From NCBI GenBank assembly GCA_964637115.1, contig CAZWVL010000001.1, forward strand, positions 96,001-160,000: a stretch of 64,000 nucleotides of DNA, written 5' to 3'. Each line of letters starts with the position of its first letter. Position 1 is the stretch's first letter. Below the pieces are notes generated by a model. It did not search any database, had not been told where the DNA came from, and saw only the letters and a list, made by a program, of their open reading frames with translations. Made by a program: the position numbers and the translations under genes. Below are positions 1,112-52,890 of the stretch, piece by piece. Source of the stretch: an uncultured Methanosarcinales archaeon (GTDB taxonomy: Archaea > Nanobdellota > Nanobdellia > Woesearchaeales > ARS49).

Positions 1112-1987
1112 ATGATGATCACTGTAGTGGGTGCAGGCAAGTTCGGGCAGGCTATTTCCAAATTACTTGGCCAGAACAAGCACCAAATGGTAGACGTAGA
1201 GAAAGACGGTACGTATTCTTCTGATACTGTTGAAAAAATCAAGAAATCAGACAAATTAATCATATGCGTGCCAAGTCCCTTTTTGCAGGATTGCACAAAC
1301 ATGCTCTCAGGCATAATCAAGCCGGACGCAAAAATACTTTCCTGCACAAAAGGCATTTATGACAATTTGAAAACACCATCAGAAATTATCAAAGAACAAC
1401 TTGCAAACCCGGTTGCGGCATTAATGGGGCCAAATCTTGCAGCCGAAATAATGCAAAACAAGCCGGCAATAGCAGTCATTGCAGGAGACAATTCACACGA
1501 ATGGGCAAGCTACTTTAACAGCACAACATTCAAAGCAATTGCTGAAACAGACATTGTCGGAATAGAATTCGGTGGAGCAATCAAGAACGTTGTTGCTTTA
1601 GGAGCAGGATTGCTTGACGGATATTATGAAAAGGACACTTGCAACTCAATGGGAAGTTTTGTGGCATTTGCATTGCGCGAAATACAGCATTTGTATGAAC
1701 ACAAATCAAGCTCAACAATACCAGAATTAAGTTTTATCGGCGATTTATTTGCAACCTGCATGTCAGAAAATTCCAGAAACCACCAGTTTGGACACCAATT
1801 CGGCAGTGTTTTGCGGGAAGGAAAGCCAACACCAAAGCCGGAGCAGACAGTTGAAGGATATAGGACGTTGCAAATTGTGCAAACATATGCTGAGAAAAAC
1901 AAGATAACAATGCCGACGATAACTGCACTATACAATGTATTCTTCAGAAATGGAAAAATTGAGAATATCATAGAGAGTTGGAGATAA
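1112..1987 (+). CDS. gpsA: NAD(P)H-dependent glycerol-3-phosphate dehydrogenase (bacterial GpsA type)
   Basis: GAGKFG Rossmann motif, MGPNLAAEI, GIEFGGAIKNVVALGAG (catalytic Lys), GDLFATCMSENSRN; start moved to ATG 1112 just after the lhr stop. Confidence 0.9.
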   Translation: MMITVVGAGKFGQAISKLLGQNKHQMVDVEKDGTYSSDTVEKIKKSDKLIICVPSPFLQDCTNMLSGIIKPDAKILSCTKGIYDNLKTPSEIIKEQLANPVAALMGPNLAAEIMQNKPAIAVIAGDNSHEWASYFNSTTFKAIAETDIVGIEFGGAIKNVVALGAGLLDGYYEKDTCNSMGSFVAFALREIQHLYEHKSSSTIPELSFIGDLFATCMSENSRNHQFGHQFGSVLREGKPTPKPEQTVEGYRTLQIVQTYAEKNKITMPTITALYNVFFRNGKIENIIESWR

Positions 1988-1989
1988 AA

Positions 1990-3153
1990 ATGTATACGAA
2001 AATATTAGCAACGGCAAGTTACGTTCCTGAAACCAGACGCACAAATGCAGATTTGGAAAAAATGGTTGATACAACAGATGAATGGATAATGGACCGTGTT
2101 GGCATAAAAGAAAGACGAATATCCAAACCACACGAAAGCCATGCGTTCATGGCAACACAATCGGTAATGAAAGTTGTTGAAAAAGCAGGCATACATCCAA
2201 GACAAGCAAGCATAATTCTAACAGGAAACACGCACGTACAAGGACTAATACCGCCAAAATCGCCCCAATGGGCGCTGGGGCCAAACATGGCAGCATATGA
2301 TGTCGTTGCGGACAACACGAGCGGTATTGTTGAGTCAGCAAGAAACCTTTTCAGAACACTTTCAATACGAGGGGACACCAGCTATACAGGAGAAGTAAGC
2401 GGACAGCTTGGACAAGGAGTAATTTATCATCACCAGCAAACAGGCCTTTCACAAGTCATAGCCAAAGAACTTGGAATGAACTCAAAATTCTCATTCGACG
2501 TAATAACGGGCTGCGCCTCATTCAATTATGGATTAGCCCTCGCAGACACTCTTGTAAAAAAAACATATCCAGAATACGTTGTAGTAGCGGCTGTTGACAA
2601 ATTGCTTGGCATCACAAATCCGAAAGACAGGTCAACAATCATATTATTTGGAGAGCTGGCAGGAGCAGCACTGATTGGACCAAGCAAGCAGGAAGGATTC
2701 ATATCACACCACTTAGAAACAGAAGGCAAGCTAAAAGACACGATAGCGATAAAACAAGAGCCGGGATGGGACAAGCCATACTTCTGGCAGGACGGCAAGG
2801 CAGTTTACAAGTGGGCAGTGCCAAAAATAGTTGAACTGACACGAAAAGCTGTTGAAGAAACACGCGACATTGGCGGCAACAGATTGTTTATAGTTCCCCA
2901 CCAGGCAAACCCGCGAATGGTTGAAACGGCAAAAAAGAATACTGTTTTCAAAAATGTCTATGCAACCATTGTAACAGGAGACATGTTCGGAAACAGCTCG
3001 ACAGCCTCCATAGCACACGCGCTTGATGTGTTATTGACAGAAGGCGTGCAGGTCAACGGCCACAAAGCAAAACCAGAAAAAGGCGACTACATCGGCATAC
3101 TTGGATTTGGAGCGGGATTGTCGTCAGCTGTCAATGTGTACCGCTGCGCTTAA
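1990..3153 (+). CDS. fabH: Beta-ketoacyl-ACP synthase III (FabH family) with an insertion
   Basis: N-terminal DTTDEWIMDRVGIKERR; Cys-His-Asn triad in FDVITGCASF, VPHQAN and FGNSSTASI; GFGAGLS near the C-terminus. Confidence 0.88.
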   Translation: MYTKILATASYVPETRRTNADLEKMVDTTDEWIMDRVGIKERRISKPHESHAFMATQSVMKVVEKAGIHPRQASIILTGNTHVQGLIPPKSPQWALGPNMAAYDVVADNTSGIVESARNLFRTLSIRGDTSYTGEVSGQLGQGVIYHHQQTGLSQVIAKELGMNSKFSFDVITGCASFNYGLALADTLVKKTYPEYVVVAAVDKLLGITNPKDRSTIILFGELAGAALIGPSKQEGFISHHLETEGKLKDTIAIKQEPGWDKPYFWQDGKAVYKWAVPKIVELTRKAVEETRDIGGNRLFIVPHQANPRMVETAKKNTVFKNVYATIVTGDMFGNSSTASIAHALDVLLTEGVQVNGHKAKPEKGDYIGILGFGAGLSSAVNVYRCA

Positions 3154-5740: not shown

Positions 5741-5797
5741 CATTGTTAAGTGGTAACATCAGCAAGCTTTAAAAGGGCGACTTATTCTTTAGAATTT

Positions 5798-7966
5798 ATG
5801 GGCGGCGATGAAATCATAGTCAAAACCTTGGAAGAACTTCTTCTTCAGCTCACTCCGGAAGAAAGAGCAAAGGCCCTGCCAGAACTCAGGAAACTTGTTG
5901 ACAGAAGCATTGCGAAAGGAGAAACAGTGGTGCTTAAGGGCATAAGAACTGTTGATGTAAACTCAGAAAAAGAGAACCCTGCTGCCACCAATTATTACGT
6001 CATCAAGAGGGAAATAGGTAGAGGCGGAATGGGAATAGTTTACAAGGCTTATGATGCTGAACTCGAGCGCGAAGTTGCACTAAAAATTTTGAGAGGCAAA
6101 GACGAAGAAAGCATTAAACGTTTTGAAAAGGAGCGCAAGATAACTGCGCAACTCGACCACCCAAACTTTGCGCGCGTTCTAACGATCGGCGAAATGGACA
6201 CGCCTGATGGAAAAATGCCTTTCTACACAATGCCTTATATCGTAGGAGACAATCTTGCAGACTTCATCAAGTGGCGCGGAGCGCCTGGAGATAAAGGACA
6301 AAAATTGCGCAGCGAGTTCACGTTAGTTCGTTTGCTGGGAATGCAACAGCTGATTTGTCAGGCGATACAAAGCGCCCACGGCAAAGGCATAATGCACAGG
6401 GACCTAAAGCCAGCAAACATACTTGTTGGCCCATACGGCGAAGTTTATGTAGTTGATTTTGGCCTGACAAAAAGAATCAAGGAAGTCGAGAATGATTCAC
6501 GGTCCTTGGAAGCAAAGGTTGGAAGGGAACTTAAAGACGAACAGGACCTCACAGGTGACGCTGGAATGGGAACCCAGAATTACATGTCTCCGGAGCAGAT
6601 TCTGGAACCAAGAAAAGTAGACCATCGCGCAGACATTTTCGGACTTGGAGGAATACTATATTACATCTTGGCCGGAGAAATACCAAAATACATCGAGCCA
6701 AGCAAAAAAGAGGTTGAGGAATCTGGAGCAACTGGAGGATTTCTTTTGGCTCTATCTTCCTACAGAATCAGATTTACACTGGATAAATGCAAAATAATCC
6801 CTCCGAGTCAGGTTGTTGCAGAAAGACGCGAGAAACTGAAGGTAATCCAAGAAAGCGGTATTGGCGTCATAATGCCAGAACCGGTAGATCCGGCGCTTGA
6901 AGCAATTTGCATGAAAGCACTGAGAAAAAATCCAGAAGAAAGATACCAATCCTGCAGGGAGATGTGGGAGGCGCTGCAACAATTCATCGAAGGCAAACCA
7001 GAAATGATTCTTGAGAACGAAGCCAAAGAACTGACAAAGGTCATGTCCAAGCAAAACCTGGACAAAACACTTGAGAATCTGGAAATGGCAGAAGTAAAAG
7101 TCCAAGAAGCAATCAACAAGCTGGAAAGAATAAAACGTATGGCGCTGGAAGAAAAGCTGAAAATGATAGATCTGCAGATCCTAAAAGCACGAGTTTACGA
7201 CCAGCGCGGACTAAGCGGCCTGATTGTCGAAACCATAGAAAAAGCAAAAACCCTGATAGAAGCGCCACTTAACATTACACAACGGCAATACATACGATTG
7301 CTGATCATGGAAGGGCTCGCAAAATTCAACCAGAAAACCTATGATGAAGCAAAGGAAATACAATTGAAAGCCATAGAGTTGTGCAAATCGCACCCGGAGA
7401 AAAAACTTTTGGTATCAGCGTACCACAATTACGCCATGGCGTGCCTGTATGATTTCAGCAGGAGACAGGATATGGCTGATTTCAACAATGCAAAGCATGC
7501 ATTTGGTGAGTGTTACAAACTCGCAGACCAGCTTACAGATGTTTTTAATGCAGTACACGCACGAACTATGCTGGCCAATTTGCTTCTTGAAAAAAATGAA
7601 TATCGGGAAGAAGTAAAGTCAACCTTGGAAACAGCCTTAAAGATTGCTGCGGGCGATAATTCGCTTACCGCAGAAGTTCATACGTTGCTGAGCTGGTATT
7701 ATTTCAAACAAAACAGCTATCACGAAACGATAACACATGGCGAATTGGCAGTTTCCCTTGCTGATAAGACAGACAACCAGATAAACCTGAACGAATCACG
7801 GCTCGCACTCGGGCAGGCATACCATCACCTTGGCAATGCTGAGAAGCGCATCCAAAACTTGAAGCCGGTGCTATCCTTCAAGTATGCCCGCGAGCCCTTG
7901 TCGTACGAAGATGCCATAAAGGAATTCTACGCGAAGAACAATTTGGATATAACGGAGCTTGATTAG
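5798..7966 (+). CDS. Hanks-type Ser/Thr protein kinase with C-terminal TPR-like helical repeats
   Basis: IGRGGMGIVY, VALK, HRDLKPAN, DFG, GTQNYMSPEQ, RADIFGLG; TPR-like helices after residue ~450. ATG 5798 preferred over GTG 5750 because TTTAAAA lies about 24 nt upstream. Confidence 0.93.
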   Translation: MGGDEIIVKTLEELLLQLTPEERAKALPELRKLVDRSIAKGETVVLKGIRTVDVNSEKENPAATNYYVIKREIGRGGMGIVYKAYDAELEREVALKILRGKDEESIKRFEKERKITAQLDHPNFARVLTIGEMDTPDGKMPFYTMPYIVGDNLADFIKWRGAPGDKGQKLRSEFTLVRLLGMQQLICQAIQSAHGKGIMHRDLKPANILVGPYGEVYVVDFGLTKRIKEVENDSRSLEAKVGRELKDEQDLTGDAGMGTQNYMSPEQILEPRKVDHRADIFGLGGILYYILAGEIPKYIEPSKKEVEESGATGGFLLALSSYRIRFTLDKCKIIPPSQVVAERREKLKVIQESGIGVIMPEPVDPALEAICMKALRKNPEERYQSCREMWEALQQFIEGKPEMILENEAKELTKVMSKQNLDKTLENLEMAEVKVQEAINKLERIKRMALEEKLKMIDLQILKARVYDQRGLSGLIVETIEKAKTLIEAPLNITQRQYIRLLIMEGLAKFNQKTYDEAKEIQLKAIELCKSHPEKKLLVSAYHNYAMACLYDFSRRQDMADFNNAKHAFGECYKLADQLTDVFNAVHARTMLANLLLEKNEYREEVKSTLETALKIAAGDNSLTAEVHTLLSWYYFKQNSYHETITHGELAVSLADKTDNQINLNESRLALGQAYHHLGNAEKRIQNLKPVLSFKYAREPLSYEDAIKEFYAKNNLDITELD

Positions 7967-14509: not shown

Positions 14510-14595
14510 CATCTTATTCTTCACTACTCTACAATACATATTTGTCACAAAGTTTAAAAGATGAACTCATAAAGTGATATAGAAATCGTGGTGGG

Positions 14596-15306
14596 ATGAT
14601 GCGGGAAACTAATGATTCGTTATCTGGATTGATAAACGATTTATTAGGTATAGAATTAAACATTACAGGAGCTAAACTGGCAGCAAGAGCTTCAACTTTG
14701 AAACGCAGAGTTCTAGACGACCAAGATGTTTTTGGTCCTTTCTTAAAAAAAGCAGGAACCGGAAGAGCCACAAGATATGAAATTGTTGATGTTCCCAATT
14801 TCAAAGAAAAACTGAAGAAAGTTCTGGAGGAAGAGAATGAAGATCCTGAGGCAGGAAAATACTCTTTCAGAGAGCTCGTAGGAGAGGCTGTAGTTCAAGT
14901 GGCTGGAGAACTCACAAAACCAGAACTTAACAGTTTGATAACAATGTACATGTCAATGTACAAAACAGACTCACAAGTTGCGGAATGTATGACAAAAGGC
15001 CGAGTAGATTTCAGATATACAGTTCATCATCCTAAACAACTCAAAGAAAGATTAGTGGAGCTCATAAACCAGCACAGACATGGAGATATACACCCACAGT
15101 TGGAAAAAACAAAAGCAGAAGTATACACGATTAATGAGATAAGAAAAACAGCGGGATTAACCTTTGAACGAATGGCCGCATACATGGCAGAACCAAAATA
15201 TGCAAAACTGCTAGGCGATGTTTCTAAAAACAAAGCAGGAGAAATAGGCTATCCCAAGAGAAATGCGGATGACTTCATAAAGGCGGTGCAAAGAAATGAC
15301 GCATAA
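14596..15306 (+). CDS. Putative DNA-binding protein with about three tandem MerR/Xis-like winged-HTH modules
   Basis: Modules ending RATRYEIVDVPNFKEKL, RVDFRYTVHHPKQLKERL and EIGYPKRNADDFIKAV; stop overlaps the sigma-like ATG by 11 nt. Confidence 0.6.
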   Translation: MMRETNDSLSGLINDLLGIELNITGAKLAARASTLKRRVLDDQDVFGPFLKKAGTGRATRYEIVDVPNFKEKLKKVLEEENEDPEAGKYSFRELVGEAVVQVAGELTKPELNSLITMYMSMYKTDSQVAECMTKGRVDFRYTVHHPKQLKERLVELINQHRHGDIHPQLEKTKAEVYTINEIRKTAGLTFERMAAYMAEPKYAKLLGDVSKNKAGEIGYPKRNADDFIKAVQRNDA

Positions 15307-17629
15307 AGGAGAGGAAGTGGGCCTTTCAGCATACAGAAAAGACTACGTCCACCCGATGGAAGCGCCAGAAGTCTTCAGAAGCGTAAGAGCGCTGGACATT
15401 TATGAGGGATTCTCAAGGCATCCAAACCTGCGCAAGACAATCCGCGTTGAAGGAGTAATCCGCGAGGATATGGTGCAAGTGGATGATATAGGATTATTTC
15501 AAAGAGTAAGTTTTGACAAGCTTGCACAAGCATTTGGGCTGAAGGATTTACATTGCCTTCGGCAATTTTTCTTTGAAACCTGGGGAGAAAAAGTAGGCGC
15601 GGCATCAAACGTGCTTGTGGCGGACTTCCTAGCGTACGTCACGCGCGCGCAGAGCAGGCTGTTCCGCGTGTTCCCTGAAAATAATGGACAAATCACGACA
15701 TACCCATTTATGGAAATGCACAATGTCGCACTGCCAGAATATTACAGGGAAAGAGGAAAAATTCCTGTAAGCGTGTTAAAAGACTACCTTGCGGCTGTGC
15801 TTGATGATTTGAAAGAAACAGGAGCGCTACCCAGAAAAAAACTAAGCGGAGTAGTAAACGCGCACTATCAAAACATTGCATTTGTTGAAGGACACGTACA
15901 AGCAGGAGATGAGTTCATTCCAACAAGGCAAGCATTCAGAGCGCTCAGCCCATATTTTACTGGAAAAGAAATCAAACATTACTTGGGCAATGGAAAGATA
16001 ACATCTGAAAAAAGGGGAGTGACAAAATTATTCAAAGTAGCGGATCTGCAGAGCCTAATAAAAGAACACTTAACTACGGGAGACGACATTTCACGACGTG
16101 CACTTGAAAGAGAACTTGCACGGGACGTAACTTTACCGGTATTAAAAGTAGGAATAAAAAACAGCGCGATTCACTATGCCACACTTTTGTTGCAGCCAGG
16201 ACTAAGAAATGCAGACTACGGAAAAATTCAGAGTGTTGTAGAAAAGCTGAACAAACTCGGTATCATGGTTCTAGAACCTGATGCAGAAAAGGTATTCAAA
16301 AATTTCACTTACAACTACAAATTAGACAGTCCGCCGGACGCTTCACAAAACCCGCTCCAGTATTACTTGTGGGATATAGGAAAAATAGAGATTCTTGATA
16401 AAGACTCGCAAAAAGACATTGGAAAAATAATGATACAACAGAGAGAAAAATTCACGTACAAATTACTGCGCAACCCTCACGCGGCAAGAAAAATTGCTGC
16501 AACACTTGCAGATATAATAGAAAAAGGACACGGATTGAAGTCCGCAAGCATATTCACAGGAGAAGACAGCCTGAATAAAGCACTAAAATGGCACGAAGTC
16601 GTTGAAGAACTGGAAAAACTGGAAAGCAAGGCAACAAGACTTGAAAAAGAACTTTCATCCGTACAGGAACGAGGCAAACTTGTAAAAGAGTACCGTTCGC
16701 TTCAAGACAAAATTGAGAACAGAATACGCGGATACGGCCTGCAAACAAGATGGCTGGCAAAAGTTGCAGAAAAATACATAACAGAAGAAATGCCTGTTGA
16801 AGAATTTGACAATAAAACAGAAATTCTAACCAGCCACCAATTATACAAAGATACGAGAGACTGTTTAATCAAGCAGATACTAAAACTGGTAGTGTCGTGC
16901 GCAAAACGCTATGTTTCCAAAAGCCCGTATGGAAGCTTTGCAGACAGAATGCTCAACCTAATCTCGCTCGGCAACATTGGAGCAATAAGTGCAGTTGAAA
17001 GATGGAATCCGGACTTAAGCTCAATCACCACATACGGATACTGGTGGATGAGACAGAGCATTACCAGACACATGTATGAAACAAGAGGAATGCAAGCCGG
17101 CGATTCACACGCAATGAGAGAAGCGGTACGTGTATATGCGAAAGAAAGACGGCGATTCTTCCAAACACACTTCCGAGAGCCAGGCCTGGATGAACTTTCA
17201 AAAAGACTAAACGTGTCAATAGAAAGATTAGCAGAAATAAGACTGTGGTCAAAACGCACCGTATCGCTTGACCAAGCAATAAATGATGATGAAGAATCAC
17301 GAATGGGCGACTTAATAGGCAAAAAAGACCCAGATCTTGAAAAGCCAAAGTACGACGAAGTTGCATTGCAAATGTTGATTCAAAAAATAGTTACGCCCAA
17401 GCAATGGAAAGTTCTGTACGGAAGATTCTATGAGGACAAAACGCTTGAGGAAGTCGCACAAAGAACTGATTTGAGAAAAAACAAGATCGGCGCCACCGGG
17501 CCCATGACACGAGAACGCATACGCCAAATTGAAGCAAAAGCACTTGCCAAACTCCGAGATCCTATCCATCTCAAAAAAATTGAAGGACTAACTGGGGAAG
17601 TTCCTGGCGTTGAAATCCCGCTTGATTAG
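15296..17629 (+). CDS. Group-1 sigma-70 (RpoD-like) factor with ~285-aa N-terminal extension
   Basis: r1.1-like KIQSVVEKLNKLGIMVLE; r1.2 NPLQYYLWDIGKIEIL; r2 LKLVVSCAKRY...GNIG..SAVERW...TTYGYWWMRQSITR; r3 REPGLDELSKRL...VSLDQAINDDEESRMGDLI; r4 TLEEVA...TRERIRQIEAKALAKLR. Confidence 0.9.
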   Translation: MTHKGEEVGLSAYRKDYVHPMEAPEVFRSVRALDIYEGFSRHPNLRKTIRVEGVIREDMVQVDDIGLFQRVSFDKLAQAFGLKDLHCLRQFFFETWGEKVGAASNVLVADFLAYVTRAQSRLFRVFPENNGQITTYPFMEMHNVALPEYYRERGKIPVSVLKDYLAAVLDDLKETGALPRKKLSGVVNAHYQNIAFVEGHVQAGDEFIPTRQAFRALSPYFTGKEIKHYLGNGKITSEKRGVTKLFKVADLQSLIKEHLTTGDDISRRALERELARDVTLPVLKVGIKNSAIHYATLLLQPGLRNADYGKIQSVVEKLNKLGIMVLEPDAEKVFKNFTYNYKLDSPPDASQNPLQYYLWDIGKIEILDKDSQKDIGKIMIQQREKFTYKLLRNPHAARKIAATLADIIEKGHGLKSASIFTGEDSLNKALKWHEVVEELEKLESKATRLEKELSSVQERGKLVKEYRSLQDKIENRIRGYGLQTRWLAKVAEKYITEEMPVEEFDNKTEILTSHQLYKDTRDCLIKQILKLVVSCAKRYVSKSPYGSFADRMLNLISLGNIGAISAVERWNPDLSSITTYGYWWMRQSITRHMYETRGMQAGDSHAMREAVRVYAKERRRFFQTHFREPGLDELSKRLNVSIERLAEIRLWSKRTVSLDQAINDDEESRMGDLIGKKDPDLEKPKYDEVALQMLIQKIVTPKQWKVLYGRFYEDKTLEEVAQRTDLRKNKIGATGPMTRERIRQIEAKALAKLRDPIHLKKIEGLTGEVPGVEIPLD

Positions 17630-17724
17630 TCATAACAGAAACGTATCCAAGCGGTAGTGAATTTTGAATACTGCCTTCCGAAAACTTTAAAAGCGAGAGG
17701 GCTATATACTGTTAAGGGAGAAAC

Positions 17725-18546
17725 ATGAGTGAAACACTATTCGATTTATTGGTTGTAGAGACAGAAATTTCAGGTCCAACAAACTCGGTTCTAGAGAAAG
17801 CTCTGGCCAACATTGAAAAACAAAGAGAAACACAAATCTTCGACAAATTCGGGCGCGACATCAAATCAGCTTCAATTGATTACACGGTCATAATACAGCC
17901 AAAAGCAGAAGGCAAGAAACCAGAAGCAATCACTTCTACAAGCACAAAATCATACGAAGATGCAGTTGCAAAAGCAAGCAAGGATGGCAAGGTAGAATAC
18001 GAAGAAACAGTAACACTAAAACTGGTCGAAAAGTTCAAAGTTCCATACATTCTTGAAAAAGCAAGGGCATCAGCGCCAAGCAAAAGAAGACTGCTTTCGG
18101 CACTCGAACGCGAAGAAAGAACACTGCGCGAACGCTACGGAAACGACATGACAAAAGAGCCAAACGATGTTCACTATTCTGTAGCATTCCATACAGGTGT
18201 GTGGAATGAAGACAAAGGAAGGCCAAACGGTGCTGTTGCAGGAGTAGGAATCAGCAGAACATCACTGGTTGAAGCGATGGATAAAGCTGCAGAGGACACA
18301 GGCAAAGCAAAGCACAGGGGAGAATTATACGCAGGAACACACACGTTCAAAATTTACATGACTGCCCAGGTTAAGGACTTGGTAGAAGCAGAAGCAAGGG
18401 CAAGAGAAGAAGCAAAAGAAGCTAAAGCTTCAAGCGGAGCGCTTGTCGGTGCTGGAGCATCAAGTCGTTCATCGGGTCGTACTTACGGAGGCGGCGGCAC
18501 AATGTCATATGCTGCAAGCGCTCCTACAAAAACAGACCTATTCTAA
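17725..18546 (+). CDS. Hypothetical protein with an internal two-fold repeat
   Basis: 273-aa ORF; TSTKSYEDAVAKASK versus ISRTSLVEAMDKAAE; low-complexity Gly/Ser tail. Confidence 0.75.
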   Translation: MSETLFDLLVVETEISGPTNSVLEKALANIEKQRETQIFDKFGRDIKSASIDYTVIIQPKAEGKKPEAITSTSTKSYEDAVAKASKDGKVEYEETVTLKLVEKFKVPYILEKARASAPSKRRLLSALEREERTLRERYGNDMTKEPNDVHYSVAFHTGVWNEDKGRPNGAVAGVGISRTSLVEAMDKAAEDTGKAKHRGELYAGTHTFKIYMTAQVKDLVEAEARAREEAKEAKASSGALVGAGASSRSSGRTYGGGGTMSYAASAPTKTDLF

Positions 18547-20231
18547 ATTTTAGATTTTCTTAACTTATCAAGAACTCTATCGCGATAGCCGTCTAAGCGC
18601 AGCTGGTTGTAACAATTAGAGGCCATGCCAAGCAATTCTGTGAAAATTCGCGCATAACTGGCAGACATCCAAGCATCAAACTTCTCTCCAAGTTTTCCAC
18701 GCGCATAAGCTTCAAAAGCCTCCATGGAAGAAGTATGAGGAGCGAGAACTTCTTTAGCAAAACAAACCCTATCTGCTGCTTCATAACAAAAGTTTGCCTT
18801 CTTTTCCAAAAGATACAACGCTTTCTCATCACCGTTGCGCAAAGCCCTGAAACGCTGCATGTGCTCATCATCAATCTGTTCGGGAGCCAGCACTCCTAAA
18901 GTGCCTGAACCAAAGCTCATTCCCCCGATGTGAAAATTACCGCTAATGCGCTGATCTATCATTCTTTGCAATCTTTTCATCCGTTTTTCTACATTTCTTT
19001 GCGCGTCAAGTCTTGAAAGTTCGTCTCCGCCATCCTCATTTCTCAAATCAAACTCCACAGAGTGCTCTGACATGGAAAAAAGAAGATCCTTTCTCGCTTC
19101 TTTGCGAGCATTCTGGTAGAGTGCCTCAGCCATAGAAAACTTTCTGACAGAATCATTATTCTTAACTTTGCTGTGAGAATAAATGACGGCTTCCAAGAAC
19201 TCAGGTCTTAGCTGGCTATAATCTCCTTCCAAGTATGAATTCTGAATCTTGTCCTCTAATTTGCATTGCTCTTCAACGGTCAGGCCAAGAAAATCTTCAC
19301 GAAGGGAGCTTATGGTTGCCATCGGCAAGACCATGACTGGAATATTGTCAAGAAATTCTGCCCAGCCGGACTCCCTGAAGAAATAACCAGTGACCTCTTC
19401 CCGTATAATTTTATTGCCGTCAAAAAATATCTTGTTCTCTAAACCGCGCTTTTGCACCAGAAGGCGGTCAAGCGTTACTCCGCTTACAAGCGCCTGCTCT
19501 TTAGGATAATATCTTACAAACCATTCTGCAGGCAAGGGAGTTCTGGTTTTCCAAAAATCAACAGTAGAATAGCCGGCGCGCTGGCCTTTCACGAGCATCT
19601 TGGCAGCACCTTCGTCTGAACGCAAGTATTTGATGCGCTCAAGATATTCTGCTTCAGTAAAAGTGTCAACATAAGTGAATTCAAACTCATCAACCTGGCC
19701 GTGCTCCTCATTCTTAATGGAGAATGTTTTATCATCGTAATTCCAAGTAACTGCGCCAAGAGGCAGCATTTCCTGGCACAAAACCCATAAATTCTCCTCG
19801 CCAACATCAACTTCAACGATTGCGTGAGCAGAAACAAAAGAACTGCCAGCGCGCCTGCAGCCCTCGATTTCTCTGATTACTGGACGCAAGCCGCATTCCT
19901 TTGCAACCACATAATTAGCGACCATCTGCGTGGAGCATATCGCCTCAGACATTTCATGCGGAAGCTGAAAATAAGTACCTTTGCGCAAGGCATCCCCAAA
20001 GCCATACTTGTGGCCGAGGTGTTTTTTAATAACTTGTGCGATAAGCTTCTTGTCATTCAAGATATCTGGACGTTTAGGATGAGAAGGATTGTCAAGAATT
20101 TTTTCAAGATCACGAATCTGGCTTTTAGCGCCTTTTTCTTCCAGCTGTTTAATCTTCATCACGTAAGCAGCGTCGATAATCAACGCACGCTTTTTCACAG
20201 CCCACTCTAAAGTTTCAGGAGGAAAACTCAT
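18543..20231 (-). CDS. Hypothetical protein, possible transglutaminase-like domain
   Basis: ICSTQMVANYVVAKECGLRP...AHAIVEV...W resembles the papain/TGase Cys-His core. Confidence 0.6.
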   Translation of the reverse strand: MSFPPETLEWAVKKRALIIDAAYVMKIKQLEEKGAKSQIRDLEKILDNPSHPKRPDILNDKKLIAQVIKKHLGHKYGFGDALRKGTYFQLPHEMSEAICSTQMVANYVVAKECGLRPVIREIEGCRRAGSSFVSAHAIVEVDVGEENLWVLCQEMLPLGAVTWNYDDKTFSIKNEEHGQVDEFEFTYVDTFTEAEYLERIKYLRSDEGAAKMLVKGQRAGYSTVDFWKTRTPLPAEWFVRYYPKEQALVSGVTLDRLLVQKRGLENKIFFDGNKIIREEVTGYFFRESGWAEFLDNIPVMVLPMATISSLREDFLGLTVEEQCKLEDKIQNSYLEGDYSQLRPEFLEAVIYSHSKVKNNDSVRKFSMAEALYQNARKEARKDLLFSMSEHSVEFDLRNEDGGDELSRLDAQRNVEKRMKRLQRMIDQRISGNFHIGGMSFGSGTLGVLAPEQIDDEHMQRFRALRNGDEKALYLLEKKANFCYEAADRVCFAKEVLAPHTSSMEAFEAYARGKLGEKFDAWMSASYARIFTELLGMASNCYNQLRLDGYRDRVLDKLRKSKI

Positions 20232-20236
20232 TTTGG

Positions 20237-21757
20237 CTAAAATACTTTGCCCATATCAGTGCCTGCCACTTTCTTTTGCGTTTCAGCGCTTGGAGGCCTT
20301 TCAATTTTCTGATATGTAGGTATAGGAGTTACAGTGACAAGCTGCATGCCAAAGCGCTCTTTCTCAGTATTAAGTGCATAGACAAGAGCGCGCTCGTGAA
20401 TGTGCACTCCGCTTTCAGTCCTTATCTGATTCCTCAAATCATTAACGCTAAATGAACCATAACCGAATGTCGGCAAGGCTTTCTGGATTGCCACTCTATA
20501 CTCATCTGTGACAGTTATTTCTGCAAACTCATAAACCCACTTCAAACCGTCTTTTCTCTTTTGCCTGATGCCAAAATCTTCCATGGAAAGAGACATGTTC
20601 CTGCCAACGCTGATAAAATCCAGTGAAATTCCAAGCTCTTTAACACTTTCACCTACGCGTTCAGAAGTGAATTCGTCATAGCCAATGTCCGCTCTAACTA
20701 TTTCCAAAGCCCTTTTAATGTAAAACTTATTAACAGAGGCTCGTTCGATTGGACGCAGGCACGAAATAATTTTCTTGATGAACTCGTCTTCTGGGATCGG
20801 CCGTTGGCCTGTTTTGGAAAACTTGTGTCGTTCTTCTTTGCTGATGCCGAACAAAGCAGGCTCAGAACGAAGGTAACTTCCAATCAAGCCGGCGGTTAAA
20901 ATACAGCCTGCTGGCAAGTCTTTCTTGACACGTCCTGAAAGAAACCGCTGGCCGGTAGCGTAACTGTCAATAACTCTCTTCATTTCCAAAAGTGCGAGCA
21001 ATTCAGGCGGTCTTTCTGTAGGGCCACTGCCAAGAATACCGCTTCTGGCGGGAATTATTTCGGACGTTGGACTGGACTGTGCATACCTTGGAAGCGAGAC
21101 TGCCACTGGATGGACCCTGAAAAGTTCAATTGGAATGCTAAGGTACTCATTTTTCTGCAATTTGTCAAGAATTTCATCAGCGCACGGGATAACGTAATGA
21201 ATCCTGTCAAGGGCAGATAGTTCTGAAATGAAATTAAGCTCTTTAACAGCGCCTTCGAAAGTAGACAATGAGAGCTTCATCTTTGTTGCGTTCTCACGGT
21301 GATTTTCCAAAGGCAGGATTTTGTCCTGCAGGTCTGCAAGCTCAACCAGTTTATCAGAAGTCGGAGCAGCGCCGGGCTTCCTTAAAGCGGTCCATTCTGC
21401 ATCAACTTTTCTTTTAATTTCCTCAAGTTCACCTATTGTCTTTTCACCGGCACTTAGTTCTGAAGCTATTTTTCTCTGCCTTTGGCCTATGGCACCGATT
21501 ACACGGCCAAGATAAGCGCCCTGAACCTCGTTCCATCTGGTAATGATTGGCATTCTGGCTTCGTGGTCGCAGATTGTTGCAAGGCTAGCAGTCCTGTAGT
21601 ACTTGTCACGAGTCTTTTTGTAAAGAACAGGATCAGTATTTTCCAAATCGCGGTTTGAATTCTGGCGCAACTCTTCCCACGATTCCTCAACCCATTTTGA
21701 GAGCTTGCTCTTTGCTTCTGGACTGAGACCTTGAGCAGTTTGATTATCTTCTGGCAT
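20237..21757 (-). CDS. Hypothetical coiled-coil protein with possible C-terminal winged helices
   Basis: 506-aa ORF, 5 nt from the next gene; no family recognised. Confidence 0.7.
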   Translation of the reverse strand: MPEDNQTAQGLSPEAKSKLSKWVEESWEELRQNSNRDLENTDPVLYKKTRDKYYRTASLATICDHEARMPIITRWNEVQGAYLGRVIGAIGQRQRKIASELSAGEKTIGELEEIKRKVDAEWTALRKPGAAPTSDKLVELADLQDKILPLENHRENATKMKLSLSTFEGAVKELNFISELSALDRIHYVIPCADEILDKLQKNEYLSIPIELFRVHPVAVSLPRYAQSSPTSEIIPARSGILGSGPTERPPELLALLEMKRVIDSYATGQRFLSGRVKKDLPAGCILTAGLIGSYLRSEPALFGISKEERHKFSKTGQRPIPEDEFIKKIISCLRPIERASVNKFYIKRALEIVRADIGYDEFTSERVGESVKELGISLDFISVGRNMSLSMEDFGIRQKRKDGLKWVYEFAEITVTDEYRVAIQKALPTFGYGSFSVNDLRNQIRTESGVHIHERALVYALNTEKERFGMQLVTVTPIPTYQKIERPPSAETQKKVAGTDMGKVF

Positions 21758-21845
21758 AATTCCCCCAATATTTCATCACTCAACAATAGTCATTTAAGTG
21801 TCATTTATAAGCTTTTCTGTCTAAATGTATGCCGTAATAGACGAG

Positions 21846-22967
21846 CTAATCCTTATGTTCACGATGCTGTACGCCAAGCGCATCTATGTAGAATTCTCTT
21901 CGCTGATTTTCCATTGATGAATAATCAGCAGGTTTTTTCTTTTCCCAGGTCTGCAAGTCGTTAAGAACTATGTTACAAACGTGCTTGAGAGAATCAAGAG
22001 ACTCCTTGCCCTGGTAGACAAATGTGCCCTTTCCACGCATTACAAGGACTGCGAAAGATTGATCGTGCCAGCGGTAGAATAATGCTGCCTTGTTATTTTC
22101 AAGGCTTTTTCTGTCAACGTGAATGTGCTGGAGAAGCTGCGCCAGAACTCTGAGCGATTCCTTTCTTTCAAGAGCTATTTTTAATCCTTTTTTGATTTCC
22201 CGTTCTCCCTTGTAGCCGAGCTCTTTGAGCATGGAGATTGCTTTTCCATAATTTTTTTCTTCCAAGTGTTGTGTTGCAGTGTCAAGGTCCTGATCGAATG
22301 CACTTTCTAAGTTGTCGAGCTGCACTTCATATGGCGCTTTGAGCTCTCGACGCTTTAGTGCAAGCACATCTGCATAGTTGGCCGCATCTCCTAATTTATC
22401 CTTCACAGCATCCAATGCCTGCTGTTCAGTCTCCCTTATTTTGTGCCGAATATCATCTGTTCTGCGCCTGACGTAAGCATCCCTTATTCCGTTCTCTTCA
22501 ATGAAATCACGTAAATTTTGTACAGCATCAATAATGCCGTCTTTCGTAAGACGCGGCTCGCGGATTCCTGCCACTTTATCATAAACTACAGGATCATCAA
22601 AGCCCCTGTCGCTCAAATCATCTGCAACGCGCGTTAATCCATGCTCATAAGCAAGCTCTTCAAATCCTATTCCGAACAAATCACGCTGCAATTGTTCGCT
22701 CAGCTTGCTTGGATCTTTTGGAGGATCTATTCTTGTCATTACGGCAGTTTCCAGGACGCCTATATCCTTTCCCCTGAAGTCAAGAAGCCGGTCGTATTTT
22801 CCCGGCTCGCCCTTGAGAACGTCAAGAATTTCCCTGAATGTTTGAACAGAGTCATAGCCGCATTGGAATAATAATTCGGCGTAATGCCCTCTGCGCGAAA
22901 GCCTGTGCACCTCTCTTTTGCGCGGGCTTCTCAACAAATCTAACAATACCTCTAGCGGCTCCCACAT
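21846..22967 (-). CDS. Hypothetical coiled-coil protein
   Basis: 373-aa ORF with a heptad-rich middle. Confidence 0.7.
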   Translation of the reverse strand: MWEPLEVLLDLLRSPRKREVHRLSRRGHYAELLFQCGYDSVQTFREILDVLKGEPGKYDRLLDFRGKDIGVLETAVMTRIDPPKDPSKLSEQLQRDLFGIGFEELAYEHGLTRVADDLSDRGFDDPVVYDKVAGIREPRLTKDGIIDAVQNLRDFIEENGIRDAYVRRRTDDIRHKIRETEQQALDAVKDKLGDAANYADVLALKRRELKAPYEVQLDNLESAFDQDLDTATQHLEEKNYGKAISMLKELGYKGEREIKKGLKIALERKESLRVLAQLLQHIHVDRKSLENNKAALFYRWHDQSFAVLVMRGKGTFVYQGKESLDSLKHVCNIVLNDLQTWEKKKPADYSSMENQRREFYIDALGVQHREHKD

Positions 22968-23052
22968 GTCATATCAAATAGTTTTGCAGCTTAAAAAGTT
23001 TGCGCCTATTTTTTACTGGATTTTGGTGAAACTAATCCAATTTGTCATAATA

Positions 23053-23060
23053 TTTATAAA
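23053..23060 (+). promoter_or_regulatory. TATA box of the 23086 gene
   Basis: TTTATAAA 25 nt before the start codon. Confidence 0.55.
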
Positions 23061-23085
23061 TACAGAGTAGGGGCTGTGATGGTGG

Positions 23086-24471
23086 GTGCGGGAAGTGAAC
23101 TGTAGACAAGTATACGGGATTCTTGAAACACTGAAACAGGGAAAAAACCCTGCTTTTGATGAAAAGGCAATAGATTACCTGCAAAACCGCCCGTTAATTT
23201 TGCTGATGTCAGAAGAGGACTATTCTGCAGCAAAGCAGAAAGAAGCGGAATTAGAACGATTGAGAGAACAACTAGACAGCCAGGGAAAGGCAGTCCTTTT
23301 TACTAGCGGAAAACTTGGAGAGCACAGAAAAGTAAAACCAAACGGCATTTTTTCAAGCAAAGCAAAGGAATCATACGACAAGATTGAGTTCGCACTTGAA
23401 AAACGGCTTAAAGATGAAAGGGACAAGTTTGAGCTGGCGCAAATAGAGCACAACCGCGTAAAAGAAGTATGCGATGAAATTATTGGGTATGCCGGAACTG
23501 CTCATGGCTATGTTAAGGTAACCTCTCTGGGTGAAAGAAGAATAGTGGAACTAAAAGCAAGACTGTACAGGCTTGCAGACCAGGAATTTGAACTGCTGGA
23601 AAAAGAAATGAAAGAGACAAACACCCGTCTTGAACAAAGGTTTAATCGATGGCAGACACTTTATGCTATGGTGCGCGCAAACAAAAGCTGTCTTGATGGT
23701 GAAAATCTGCGCGCAGCATTTGCAACTTTATCGCAGCGGGAAGCAGACGGTGAACAAAATCTTGTAAGATTCAAATCAATGCAGCGAGAATTTGACCGGC
23801 AGGGCTTTTATAGCGAAAATGGAGGACTTGGTTACAAAACATATGCGCTTATGGCGCTGGAAGAAGGCAGTCCGGAAGAAATAGTGTCAAGAGTAGACAT
23901 GGCACACAAGATAGCCCTCAAAAATTTCAATCCAGGTCCTGGAACCACAGATCTTGCAGCAATGATTGCCAGAAATACCACAGTGCAGACACTGCCGACA
24001 AAACTTGACAGGTTTTCAGAATTATATTACCGGCTTCCAAACATTGAAAATATTCACTCACGCGGAACTGCGGCTGCAATAATGGCAGAATCAGAAGAGA
24101 CAGAAGCAAGATTGGTCGAGAAATTCGATTCAGTACATCAAAGATTGTGCATCATCGCACAATCGTCAACGTTGCTGCCTTCATTAGTTGAGGCAGCTGC
24201 TCGCTTTTCAAGGTTTGGAGAAGAAGAATTCAAGAAACTGGTGCCAGCATACATCCACACAAAGGACAGAGTGGCTGGGCTATACGGCTACAGCATAGCT
24301 GTAGAACTTGCGCTCAAGCCAGGAAACATTAACGAAATATGCGATATTTTCGACCTGACTGTTGAAAAGGCATGGCAATGCGCAGAAATACCTGCTGTTG
24401 AAAAATACTCCATTTCTGCGCAATTGATGAGCAGCGCGTGGAAACTCGCAGAACTGCAAATGGCAAAATAA
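23086..24471 (+). CDS. Hypothetical protein: coiled coil plus C-terminal helical repeats
   Basis: 461-aa ORF; repeated helical units (LDRFSELYYRL, VEKFDSVHQRL). Confidence 0.7.
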   Translation: MREVNCRQVYGILETLKQGKNPAFDEKAIDYLQNRPLILLMSEEDYSAAKQKEAELERLREQLDSQGKAVLFTSGKLGEHRKVKPNGIFSSKAKESYDKIEFALEKRLKDERDKFELAQIEHNRVKEVCDEIIGYAGTAHGYVKVTSLGERRIVELKARLYRLADQEFELLEKEMKETNTRLEQRFNRWQTLYAMVRANKSCLDGENLRAAFATLSQREADGEQNLVRFKSMQREFDRQGFYSENGGLGYKTYALMALEEGSPEEIVSRVDMAHKIALKNFNPGPGTTDLAAMIARNTTVQTLPTKLDRFSELYYRLPNIENIHSRGTAAAIMAESEETEARLVEKFDSVHQRLCIIAQSSTLLPSLVEAAARFSRFGEEEFKKLVPAYIHTKDRVAGLYGYSIAVELALKPGNINEICDIFDLTVEKAWQCAEIPAVEKYSISAQLMSSAWKLAELQMAK

Positions 24472-43198: not shown

Positions 43199-44671
43199 AT
43201 GCCAACAGAAGAAGAACTCATAGCAGAACGCAAGAGAAAAAGAGAAGAACTCTTGAAATTGGGAATTAATCCTTATCCTTACAAATACGAGCCGACGCAC
43301 AAGTCAAACGAGCTTCTTGACAAGTACAAAGGATTGCAGCCTGAACAAAGAACTACTGATACAGTGAAAGTTGCGGGAAGAATTGTTGGTCTTAGAAGAA
43401 TGGGCAAAGCGACATTCATGCACTTGCTTGACCAAAACGGAAAAGTGCAGATTTATTTCAAGTTTGATGACATTCCTAAGATTTACGAACAATTGAAACT
43501 AATGGACCTGGGAGACTGGTTAGGTGTTGAAGGAACAGTTTTCAAAACAAAAACAGGCGAGATAACAGTCTGGGCGAATAATTTTGAGATTCTCTGCAAA
43601 GCACTGCGCCCGCTGCCAGAGAAATGGCACGGACTAACTGACATTGAACAAAGGTACAGAAAAAGATACGTTGACTTGTTTGTAAACCCGGAAGTGCGCA
43701 AGACATTCTTCCAACGCACTAAGATACTTAATTCACTTAGGAATGAACTTGACAAAAGAGGATTCCTTGAAGTTGAAACACCAATCCTCCAGCCAATTTA
43801 TGGTGGAGCTGCCGCAAAACCGTTTAAGTCGCACTTGAACTCATTAAAAATGGACGTTTTTTTAAGAATTGCGCCAGAGTTGTATTTGAAACGATTGATT
43901 GTCGGCGGAATTGAACGGGTCTATGAGATAGGTAAGCTCTTCCGCAACGAAGACATAGACAGGACACATAATCCGGAGTTTAGTTCTATTGAAATTTACC
44001 AAGCATATGCAGACTTTAATGACGTAAGAGTACTTACCGAAGACCTATGGGTGGCAGCTGCAAAAGCAATTCATGGAAGCACAAAGTTTGAATTCCAAGG
44101 ACAAGTCATAGATGTAAAAAAGCCATGGCAAACCTACACGATGGTGGAAGCACTGAAAAAGTTTGCAGGCATTGATTCTGAAAAGTTAACAATGCAGGAC
44201 ATGAACAAACTCTGTCAGCAGCACAAGTTGCAAGTTGTTGCCAATCCGTCAAAAGGACAGTTAATTCAAGCCCTATTTGAAGAACTTGTTGAAGATAAAC
44301 TAATACAACCAACATTCATCACACACCATCCTGTAGAAAGCACGCCTTTATGCAAACCGTGCAGAGAAGACCACCTGAAAGAACACTTTATTGAACGTTT
44401 TGAAGGATACATAGCAGGCATGGAAATAGCAAATGCATACTCAGAATTAAATGATCCAGTGTTGCAAAGATCACTTCTTGAAGCGCAGGCAAAAGAACTC
44501 CGCGCAGGCAGCGAAGAAGCACACCCAATGGACGAAGACTTCATCGAAGCAATAGAATACGGAATGCCGCCAACCGGCGGCTTTGCCATCGGACTAGACA
44601 GAATGATAATGCTCCTGACAAACAATCCAAGCATTAGAGACGTACTATTTTTCCCATTTATGAAACAGTGA
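43199..44671 (+). CDS. lysS: Lysyl-tRNA synthetase, class II
   Basis: OB fold VAGRIVGLRRMGKATF, RYRKRYVDL, FLRIAPELYLKRL, FRNE, HNPEF, GMPPTGG.AIGLDR. Confidence 0.97.
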   Translation: MPTEEELIAERKRKREELLKLGINPYPYKYEPTHKSNELLDKYKGLQPEQRTTDTVKVAGRIVGLRRMGKATFMHLLDQNGKVQIYFKFDDIPKIYEQLKLMDLGDWLGVEGTVFKTKTGEITVWANNFEILCKALRPLPEKWHGLTDIEQRYRKRYVDLFVNPEVRKTFFQRTKILNSLRNELDKRGFLEVETPILQPIYGGAAAKPFKSHLNSLKMDVFLRIAPELYLKRLIVGGIERVYEIGKLFRNEDIDRTHNPEFSSIEIYQAYADFNDVRVLTEDLWVAAAKAIHGSTKFEFQGQVIDVKKPWQTYTMVEALKKFAGIDSEKLTMQDMNKLCQQHKLQVVANPSKGQLIQALFEELVEDKLIQPTFITHHPVESTPLCKPCREDHLKEHFIERFEGYIAGMEIANAYSELNDPVLQRSLLEAQAKELRAGSEEAHPMDEDFIEAIEYGMPPTGGFAIGLDRMIMLLTNNPSIRDVLFFPFMKQ

Positions 44672-52496: not shown

Positions 52497-52548
52497 ACAT
52501 AAATGCCTATGAGGAGGGTTTATAAAGGTTATTGCCTGTCTGCAAAAC

Positions 52549-52890
52549 ATGGCGGCTATAGACGAGGTTGTCAAAACAATTGACGAAACCATTTCACAGG
52601 CACGAGCCACTTTTGAAGACCAATTCCAAGCCCTAAAAGCACGCCAAGAAAAACGTTCAGGTCCTGTTGCTTTTTCATCCACAAAGGGTCTAACGCAGCA
52701 ATGCGTTTCTTGCAGCAAGGAAATCGTCAACTATGCCGTTTTTGGCAGATGCATCGAAGGAGAAAGAGAAGGTTTTGTCAACATCAGCTGGAATTGCAAC
52801 AATTGCAAAAAACGTTTTGTTTTCATGGGCCCCAGAAGCTCAGTCGTAGATAAGCTATTGCACTTGTCTTATCAGCTAAAAGCGGCCTAA
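52549..52890 (+). CDS. Zn-ribbon hypothetical protein
   Basis: CVSC...CNNC. Confidence 0.65.
   Translation: MAAIDEVVKTIDETISQARATFEDQFQALKARQEKRSGPVAFSSTKGLTQQCVSCSKEIVNYAVFGRCIEGEREGFVNISWNCNNCKKRFVFMGPRSSVVDKLLHLSYQLKAA

Follow-up and report, generated by a model that had tools for sequence, protein, structure and literature searches.

A sigma-70-family protein of a Woesearchaeales archaeon combines conserved DNA-reading residues with an altered core-binding patch and an N-terminal extension

Introduction

An uncultured archaeon, deposited as a Methanosarcinales archaeon and placed by GTDB in the Woesearchaeales (Archaea; Nanobdellota; Nanobdellia; Woesearchaeales; ARS49), encodes a 777-residue protein of the sigma-70 family. 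Its gene lies at positions 15296–17629 of a 64,000-nt stretch of DNA (GenBank assembly GCA_964637115.1, contig CAZWVL010000001.1, positions 96,001–160,000 of the forward strand). We refer to this stretch as the window and to the contig as C1. The open reading frame (ORF) is very probably a real archaeal sigma-family gene. The protein retains the residues with which bacterial sigma factors recognize and melt promoter DNA, lacks both the canonical core-binding residues and an acidic region 1.1, and carries some 270 additional N-terminal residues that include a predicted winged helix. The reading that we favor, with a probability of about 0.45, is that the protein would be a promoter-DNA-binding regulator that does not depend on canonical docking on the polymerase core.

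The presence of a sigma-70 gene in an archaeon is not new. The portions at hand of a 2021 report by Castelle et al. (PMC8204110) describe sigma-70 genes in DPANN archaea (fam00359) as “particularly prevalent in Woesearchaeota”; in these portions, mis-binning is excluded, no anti-sigma factor is recognized, and the mechanism of the sigma factors is called unclear. That report, to the extent of these portions, and the 130 sigma-bearing genomes counted below make the statement in the preliminary description of this DNA that archaea lack sigma factors out of date. Experimental work on archaeal sigma factors was not found in the literature searched. The window and the cases in the portions of PMC8204110 at hand have in common an archaeal host with TBP, TFB, and TFE and a sigma-70-family gene, and the comparison with fam00359 is one of family and host only. 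Whereas these portions report presence, the window adds the architecture from region 1.1 to region 4, an archaeal-only clade, an N-terminal module, a partner gene, and the change in the core-binding patch. As far as we found, the N-terminal module, the partner, the de-acidified region 1.1, the patch change of the subfamily, and the archaeal-only clade are apparently undescribed.

Sigma regions of the 777-residue protein

The gene and its parts are as follows (window coordinates, plus strand; aa, amino acids).

15296–17629 (+): sigma-70-family gene, 777 aa, intact ORF
15296–15895 (+): aa 1–200, family-specific α/β module with an invariant GLFQR motif
15893–16093 (+): aa 200–266, predicted excisionase/MerR-type (HTH_17-like) winged helix-turn-helix (HTH), from a structure match
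16133–16288 (+): aa 280–331, region 1.1-like domain, not acidic, from hhalign, a structural match, and the Pfam score of a relative
16352–16450 (+): aa 353–385, region 1.2, YYLWDIGKIEILD..., from TIGR02997 and the residue map
16451–16855 (+): aa 386–520, non-conserved region (NCR) of long helices, from the secondary structure of the model and the position between regions 1.2 and 2.1
16856–17080 (+): aa 521–595, region 2, from Pfam Sigma70_r2 (aa 524–593) and the residue map
17120–17326 (+): aa 609–677, region 3 including the acidic 3.2 finger, from Pfam Sigma70_r3 and alignments
17261–17314 (+): aa 656–673, acidic 3.2 finger, SLDQAINDDEESRMGDL
17393–17566 (+): aa 700–757, region 4 with an invariant T-R-E-R-x-R-Q recognition helix, from Pfam Sigma70_r4 (aa 700–754)
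17456–17500 (+): aa ~721–735, insert of ~11 aa in the HTH turn of region 4.2, from alignment

Regions 2, 3, and 4 all score above the curated Pfam cut-offs (Sigma70_r2, 30.4 bits with a cut-off of 24; Sigma70_r3, 41.4 with 25.3; Sigma70_r4, 47.2 with 24.1), and the protein also passes the sigma-70 superfamily model TIGR02937 (65.6 versus 42.9 bits). A phmmer search against PDB chains aligned aa 456–758 to mycobacterial SigA with 96 bits, and every motif quoted in the preliminary description is visible in this alignment. The top-scoring equivalog models are those of RpoD, RpoS, and MzaA, all of which fall far short of their cut-offs. For RpoD, which gives the best of these scores, they are 131.8 versus 555 bits (NF004208), 119.2 versus 354 (TIGR02393), and 113.9 versus 572 (NF006666); the protein is not an RpoD equivalog. 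The designation “primary sigma-70 factor” used earlier was thus overstated, given RpoD scores of 114–132 bits against cut-offs of 555–572 and a region 1.1 that is not acidic.

MzaA of the MZA anti-phage system is likewise a long sigma-family protein (~700 aa) with a large N-terminal extension. The model NF041931 aligns to aa 350–765 and the PADLOC MzaA model to aa 514–764. We rejected MzaA identity because the NF041931 score was 104 versus 800 bits, only the sigma part was matched, and no Mza component was present among six neighboring genes.

The N-terminal sigma regions are more divergent, and Pfam finds neither region 1.1 nor region 1.2 in the 777-residue protein. Three results point to region 1.1: (i) the profile of the family N-terminus matched a profile of 17 bacterial region 1.1 sequences over aa 280–331 (hhalign probability 83%, E 8.6e-6); (ii) aa 280–331 of the structural model superposed on the sigma 1.1 domain of Bacillus subtilis SigA (5mww) with a Z-score of 5.8 and a root-mean-square deviation (rmsd) of 2.5 Å over 55 aa; and (iii) the family member P0007 came close to the Pfam r1_1 threshold (21.7 versus 22.5 bits). 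Region 1.2 begins at about aa 353, the TIGR02997 alignment starting at residue 355, and it retains the equivalents of Y101 and L102 of Escherichia coli RpoD. The family member P0008 has a sub-threshold Pfam r1_2 match, and other sigma factors of the archaeal clade pass the r1_2 cut-off. The predicted NCR is found where group-1 sigma factors have theirs, after region 1.2 and ahead of region 2.1. Regions 1.1 and 1.2 are thus both found ahead of region 2, and the group-1 order given earlier (1.1, 1.2, NCR, 2, 3, 4) holds, with moderate rather than strong support for region 1.1. The net charge of region 1.1 is +1 in the 777-residue protein and −3 to +4 across the family, whereas 17 bacterial RpoDs range from −4 to −13 and E. 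coli has −9; the protein does not have the strongly acidic region 1.1 that serves as a DNA mimic.

DNA-reading residues and the core-binding patch

Residues were mapped in E. coli RpoD numbering (locus L121) onto 9 family members and 26 bacterial RpoDs. The equivalents of T429, Y430, W433, W434, R436, Q437, T440, and R441, which act in −10 melting and recognition, are T579, Y580, W583, W584, R586, Q587, T590, and R591. Across the 9 family members, T429, W434, Q437, and R441 of region 2 and T583, R584, E585, R586, R588, and Q589 of region 4 are invariant; Y430 and W433 are retained in 8 of them. The sequence TRERIRQIE is identical to the bacterial −35 helix, and the 3.2 finger is acidic in the 777-residue protein and in the family. 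Alignment to solved SigA and to E. coli RpoD therefore confirmed what had been read from the sequence, namely that −10 melting and recognition residues, 3.2 finger, and −35 helix are all retained.

The same alignments confirmed the changed core-binding patch in regions 2.1 and 2.2. Among the 26 bacterial RpoDs, N383, D403, Q406, E407, and N409 are invariant or nearly so, N383 fully. In the 777-residue protein, (i) N383 of region 2.1 is replaced by isoleucine, and 7 of the 9 family members have I, L, or V at this position; (ii) D403, Q406, and E407 of region 2.2 are replaced by N, S, and L, with serine at 406 in 7 of 9 members and L/I/A/H/H/D/A/E/E at 407; (iii) N409 is kept as N; and (iv) Y421 and Y425 are lost, position 421 being proline in 8 of 9 members. 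The canonical set of core-binding residues is thus absent from the protein.

The preliminary description also mentioned loss of region 3.0 and an insert in the turn of region 4.2. Both are present in the 777-residue protein, but neither is family-wide. The region 3.0 motif RxxRIPVH (aa 599–606, just upstream of region 3) reads MxxGDSHA; it is lost in this protein and three relatives and largely kept in P0004, P0005, P0007, and P0010. The ~11-aa insert precedes the 4.2 recognition helix only in the 777-residue protein and its 88% relative, is absent from the ortholog in genome G017, and was modeled with a predicted local distance difference test (pLDDT) score below 50. Overall, the protein resembles RpoD/SigA and RpoS in the order of regions 1.1 to 4 and in its retained −10/melting residues, 3.2 finger, and −35 helix. 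It differs from them in its 270 extra N-terminal residues, its non-acidic region 1.1, its score (132 versus 555 bits with RpoD), and the absence of N383, Q406, E407, Y421, Y425, and the region 3.0 motif.

N-terminal extension and winged helix

The ~270 aa ahead of region 1.1 were left out of the preliminary description. The N-terminal 350 aa, folded alone with 11 homologs, gave a confident model with a pLDDT of 82 and a predicted TM-score (pTM) of 0.68. In this model, aa 200–266 form a short strand, two helices, and a wing, the arrangement of a winged-helix fold. The segment superposed on the excisionase 8c3t_A with a Z-score of 6.6 and an rmsd of 2.2 Å over 55 of 57 aa, on the Pukovnik Xis (4j2n) with a Z-score of 6.2 and a Foldseek probability of 0.97, and on many phage excisionase and HTH models with probabilities of 0.99–1.00 and TM-scores of 0.6–0.78. 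For excisionase/MerR (HTH_17) domains as a group, the superpositions ranged over Z-scores of 5–6.6 and rmsds of 2.2–3.9 Å. Unlike those domains, the winged helix of the 777-residue protein sits inside a sigma factor and has no sequence match in Pfam: no family, PF12728 and PF13411 included, matched aa 1–270 at E values up to 10. Foldseek against the PDB with the whole N-terminal model returned nothing at E ≤ 0.001, and structure searches gave no convincing fold match for aa 1–200. Helical S15-like matches (Z-scores of 4.5–5) were at background level. An atlas search by shape gave weak HTH_17/MerR rows only (TM-score < 0.3 by query) and an atlas search by features no usable match; atlas clusters that combine HTH_17 with Sigma70_r4_2 exist, with weak matches only.

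The N-terminal module is very rare: it turned up 5 times when 5.8 billion proteins were searched by a word index, and in 8 of the 1.84 billion cluster representatives covered by an exhaustive profile search. Of these 8, six are 742–784 aa long, and the two weakest matches are 730 and 409 aa. The 409-aa protein (P0009, from a metagenome) has the first ~200 aa of the module fused to an extracytoplasmic function (ECF)-type sigma factor (r2 and r4_2) and is the sole representative without regions 1.1, 1.2, and 3. Therefore, the module has been joined to two classes of sigma factor.

The partner gene

The sigma gene is preceded by an overlapping gene, which we designate the partner.

14553–14559 (+): TTTAAAA, candidate archaeal TATA-like box, 37–43 nt before the partner ATG, a consensus-level match
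14596–15306 (+): partner gene, 236 aa, no known family, 11-nt overlap with the sigma start

A homologous ORF (phmmer E values of 2e-12 to 5e-5) overlaps the start of the sigma gene by 4–14 nt at all 5 orthologous loci with DNA (the window, L019, L010, L101, and L102). In layout, the P0004 contig resembles these loci, since a 317-aa ORF runs across the sigma start there as well. This arrangement indicates that sigma and partner form a translationally coupled two-gene operon. The dN/dS (ratio of nonsynonymous to synonymous substitution rates) of the partner gene is 0.19. The partner protein is nearly absent from the databases searched; it has no Pfam, PHROG, PADLOC, or PDB relative, and no anti-sigma domain was recognized in it by these searches. 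A relation to the N-terminus of the sigma protein by paralogy was rejected (hhalign probability 0.3%). A complex prediction of sigma aa 1–760 with the partner scored 0.65, and a control in which the sigma chain was replaced scored 0.67.

The TTTAAAA box is compatible with archaeal transcription of the operon. Archaeal TATA boxes and archaeal flanking genes had both been claimed for this locus. One such box was found, as a consensus-level match only; the immediate flanking genes (SOD, DUF84 NTPase, LEA_2, and NUDIX) are not specifically archaeal. Elsewhere in the bin, a 212-aa frame on contig C8 (G000:C8:55707-55907 (−), L122) has a match to the C-terminal part of the anti-sigma factor RskA; as an anti-sigma candidate it was set aside, the match being sub-threshold (23.7 versus 29.4 bits).

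The host genome

The genome bin has 1.27 Mb, is 98% complete, and has an estimated contamination of 4.25%. It encodes TBP, TFB, and TFE-alpha. Its RNA polymerase is represented by one Rpb1_1 match (a 914-aa frame; Rpo1 is encoded on contig C7) adjoining a split Rpo2 and by one Rpb2_6 match, both archaeal in size. No second Rpb1/β′-like match and no α-CTD were found in the 98%-complete bin, and the search for a bacterial polymerase proposed earlier thus returned only archaeal Rpo1/Rpo2; the host of the 777-residue protein does not have a bacterial core polymerase alongside. TFB and TFE carry out in archaea the steps that sigma factors take, namely promoter reading, insertion of a finger into the cleft, and binding to the clamp coiled-coil (PMC7289017), and are not homologous to sigma. 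Since TBP, TFB, and TFE are all encoded, the sigma-like protein is an addition to, not a replacement of, the archaeal factors.

Several housekeeping genes in the window look bacterial.

1978–3153 (+): FabH-like ketoacyl synthase
43199–44671 (+): bacterial class II LysRS, above cut-off
51144–52730 (−): SRP54 with an N-terminal extension of ~80 aa, scoring 441 bits with bacterial Ffh and 390 with SRP54_euk

In addition, all three sigma-family genes of the bin are on C1. The other two encode 190-aa ECF-type sigma factors and lie outside the window (L001:1204-1776 (−) and L002:1201-1773 (−)); both have Sigma70_r2 with r4 or r4_2 above cut-off. Mis-binning was therefore tested. By tetranucleotide composition, C1 clusters with the other contigs of the bin, and SRP54, LysRS, GuaA, and PurB on C1 have no second copy in the bin. 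A diphthamide synthase gene is present in the window, sigma and TFB lie ~6 kb apart on an orthologous contig, and in genomes G192 and G322 sigma and archaeal Rpo1 share one contig. No small-subunit rRNA was found in the bin with either model. The sigma gene lies on a demonstrably archaeal contig, and its host is archaeal. Just past the end of the window, G000:C1:160001-180000 is the strongest tetranucleotide outlier of the bin (−0.017 on the first principal component) and may be foreign or mobile DNA.

Distribution, phylogeny, and selection

Among 301 high-quality genomes of the phylum, 130 have Sigma70_r2, and single-contig genomes are among them; by genus, the count is 117 of 224. The unpublished genomes G010 and G023 are counted only in this tally and in the genus distribution and are outside the alignments and the tree. 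Full-length orthologs of the 777-residue protein (31–40% identity) occur in G017, G167, G190, and metagenome contigs, and orthologs are present in four other archaeal assemblies. The 777-aa form exists in three other genera of the taxonomic family but was not detected in the 14 further species of its own genus; therefore, its distribution is patchy.

A phylogeny against bacterial RpoDs and DPANN homologs had been called for in the preliminary description. In a maximum-likelihood tree of sigma regions 2–4 from 60 sequences, the 777-aa family (99/96) is nested in a clade (99/93) whose 27 sequences are all archaeal. A few of the remaining archaeal sigma factors adjoin RpoDs of the candidate phyla radiation (CPR)/Patescibacteria (100/100, 96/90), and others stand beside RpoDs of metagenome-assembled genomes labeled Candidatus Acidiferrum/Acidiferrales. 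Since archaeal sigma factors occupy several positions in the tree, they were acquired more than once. The best bacterial match to the 777-residue protein, among the matches listed, is 34–38% identical.

Two further cases were noted in the tree. Genome G223 has four tandem sigma genes (L106, G223:C3:15000-23200) placed near Patescibacteria RpoD, and the sigma factor of G038 (L011, G038:C67) is sister to RpoD of Candidatus Moraniibacteriota (100/100). Either these genes came recently from CPR bacteria or their contigs are contaminants.

The 777-aa sigma gene has a dN/dS of 0.12 overall relative to its 88% ortholog at L019, and every region is below 0.3. The values by region, obtained from the L019 pair only because L101 and L102 are too similar to each other (dS ~0.1), are as follows.

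aa 1–200: 0.053
winged helix: 0.042
region 1.1: 0.12
region 1.2: 0.10
NCR: 0.275
region 2: 0.226
region 3: 0.095
region 4: 0.136

The gene is under purifying selection. Its slowest-evolving part is the N-terminal extension (aa 1–270), and region 2 is among the least constrained.

These results bear on the reading that the gene is an artefact or a relic, that is, that a bacterial contig was mis-binned or chimeric, or that the gene was transferred and is decaying without a function. The bacterial-looking genes, the three sigma genes on one contig, and the contamination estimate would fit such an origin, but the composition of C1, the lack of duplicate SRP54 and LysRS genes, the orthologs in four other archaeal assemblies (one on a contig with TFB), the shared contigs of sigma and Rpo1 in G192 and G322, the low dN/dS, and the modest identity to the best bacterial match listed all contradict it. 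We regard this reading as largely refuted and as extremely improbable. The contig is not chimeric by these measures, the bin is not bacterial, as its TBP, TFB, TFE, and single archaeal Rpo1/Rpo2 show, and the gene is not an unconserved fragment. The earlier suggestion that the sigma gene was domesticated in an archaeon is supported by the archaeal machinery of the host, the composition of C1, the orthologs, and the selection on the gene.

Core docking and possible modes of action

Most other sigma factors of the archaeal-only clade keep N383, R385, D403, Q406, E407, and N409 exactly, although the only Rpo1 that their genomes encode is archaeal and has a clamp coiled-coil unlike the bacterial one. 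Hence, the altered patch characterizes the 777-aa subfamily rather than archaeal sigma factors at large. Sigma factors of other genomes of the phylum in which the canonical patch was seen include L104, L105, L107, L109, L110, L113, L114, and L120, and many canonical-patch members of the clade have N-terminal extensions of 300–620 aa ahead of region 1.2 without a family match.

Alignment of the Rpo1 clamp coiled-coil to E. coli β′ 255–309 requires no gaps. The archaeal residues are I, L, and H at β′ R275, E295, and A302, which we take to be the key sigma-contact residues, and D, E, and D at R271, R293, and R297. The loss of acidity at D403 and E407 of the sigma protein would fit this acidic coiled-coil. 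The fit stays a suggestion because position 407 varies in the family and there is no co-variation: whether a genome has a canonical or an altered sigma patch, its Rpo1 coiled-coil is almost the same.

In the main rival reading, the 777-residue protein would be a genuine factor of the archaeal RNA polymerase, bound to it for specificity or initiation. Region 2 would then dock on the Rpo1 clamp coiled-coil via a re-shaped surface. The 3.2 finger would reach into the active-site cleft like the B-reader of TFB, and a bipartite promoter would be recognized by regions 2 and 4. Such a role is consistent with the retention of the 3.2 finger, the melting residues, and the 1.1 fold under purifying selection, with an archaeal polymerase as the sole one encoded, and with the wide occurrence of the sigma clade in the phylum. 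The replacement of D403/E407 by N/L would remove a charge clash with the acidic residues at R271, R293, and R297, and the serine at 406 is common to 7 of 9 family members. However, the variation at 407 and other patch positions looks like relaxation rather than a new fixed interface, the coiled-coil shows no co-variation with the patch, and region 2, with a dN/dS of 0.23, is among the least constrained parts. Furthermore, TBP, TFB, and TFE, all present in this genome, use the same polymerase surfaces. On balance, a polymerase-bound role seems rather unlikely.

The regulator that we favor would act inside the archaeal cell as a sequence-specific promoter-DNA-binding protein. Its sites would be read via the −35-type helix of region 4, the −10/melting residues of region 2, and the added winged helix. 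Acidic-1.1 autoinhibition and the canonical β′-clamp docking patch would have been given up, from which we infer that the protein would not serve as a classical holoenzyme subunit. The invariant contacts of regions 2.3/2.4 and 4.2, the extra winged helix, and the constrained N-terminus argue for a capacity to bind DNA. Four points weigh against this proposal: (i) the 3.2 finger, the melting tryptophans, and the 1.1 fold are retained, which in bacteria matter only inside RNA polymerase and none of which a plain double-stranded-DNA-binding regulator would need; (ii) no DNA target of the protein was identified; (iii) sigma-70-type promoter matches are not enriched between 12 and 26 kb of the window (24 versus 21.5 ± 4.5 in shuffled sequences), although this is a weak test; and (iv) the canonical core residues of the sister sigma factors hint at a selected polymerase-type contact in the clade.

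Alternatively, the protein could act on bacterial RNA polymerase or DNA in a partner or host cell. Its DNA-reading residues match those that read bacterial −10 and −35 elements, sister archaeal sigma factors keep β′-binding residues though no β′ is encoded, and the grouping of some archaeal sigma factors with CPR bacterial RpoD indicates contact with bacterial gene pools. In the 777-aa subfamily, however, it is exactly the β′-binding patch that has changed. The protein is large and looks cytoplasmic; no export signal was noticed in it (no signal-peptide predictor was run), and the known hosts of DPANN archaea are archaea (PMC8204110). We consider an action on a bacterial partner very improbable.

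Genomic neighborhood

A 6.7-kb block (17700–24391) between the sigma gene and purE contains five ORFs without a Pfam, PHROG, or PADLOC family.

17725–18546 (+): ORF of the block
18543–20231 (−): ORF of the block
20237–21757 (−): ORF of the block
21846–22967 (−): ORF of the block
23086–24471 (+): ORF of the block

The block is absent from the 88% syntenic relative L019, where a remnant of the 3′ end of the last ORF remains; this suggests either a deletion in L019 or a variable island in the window.

The sigma gene might belong to, or derive from, a DPANN mobile element or virus and redirect transcription for that element. A 2025 paper describes rpoS-like genes in DPANN viruses and one prophage (PMC12647753), the 777-aa form has the patchy distribution given above, the family-less block directly follows the gene and is missing in the close relative, and the predicted N-terminal winged helix belongs to the excisionase type, which many phages have. 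Against this stand the absence of PHROG/PADLOC support for the neighbors, with the exception of one marginal match, and the setting of the orthologs: the L019 operon sits between NUDIX and purine-synthesis genes with no extra block, and other orthologs are found among housekeeping genes and TFB. The composition is the same as that of the host; no integrase, repeats, or tRNA were seen near the sigma gene, and there are no tRNA genes in the window. A mobile origin of this kind appears quite improbable.

Two other genes of the window were noted. An ORF at 5750–7966 (+) encodes a 738-aa protein with a Ser/Thr protein kinase domain fused to TPR repeats, and a 1712-aa ORF at 58846–63984 (−) has weak repeat-type matches only (NblB/HEAT-like).

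Implications

A broader hypothesis concerns the archaeal-clade sigma factors as a whole, the 777-residue protein included. Docked on the archaeal RNA polymerase, they would enable it to recognize and melt bipartite promoters in the bacterial manner, either together with TBP, TFB, and TFE or competing with them. We think this unlikely. If it were true, a hybrid initiation pathway would exist in a cellular organism, and the winged helix and the coupled partner would be a targeting or control device of the 777-aa subfamily.

Initiation by bacterial sigma factors and initiation by archaeal/eukaryotic factors of the TBP–TFB type are treated as mutually exclusive solutions. Sigma genes that are under selection in nearly half of the genomes of a phylum provide a natural test of whether sigma can function with, or without, a non-bacterial polymerase. 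The portions of the 2021 report at hand leave the role of archaeal sigma factors open (PMC8204110), and the 777-aa subfamily offers a clean test case, in which the DNA-reading parts are intact, the docking patch and the acidic region 1.1 are gone, and a putative DNA-binding domain has been added. The dedicated, co-translated partner adds to its value as such a case.

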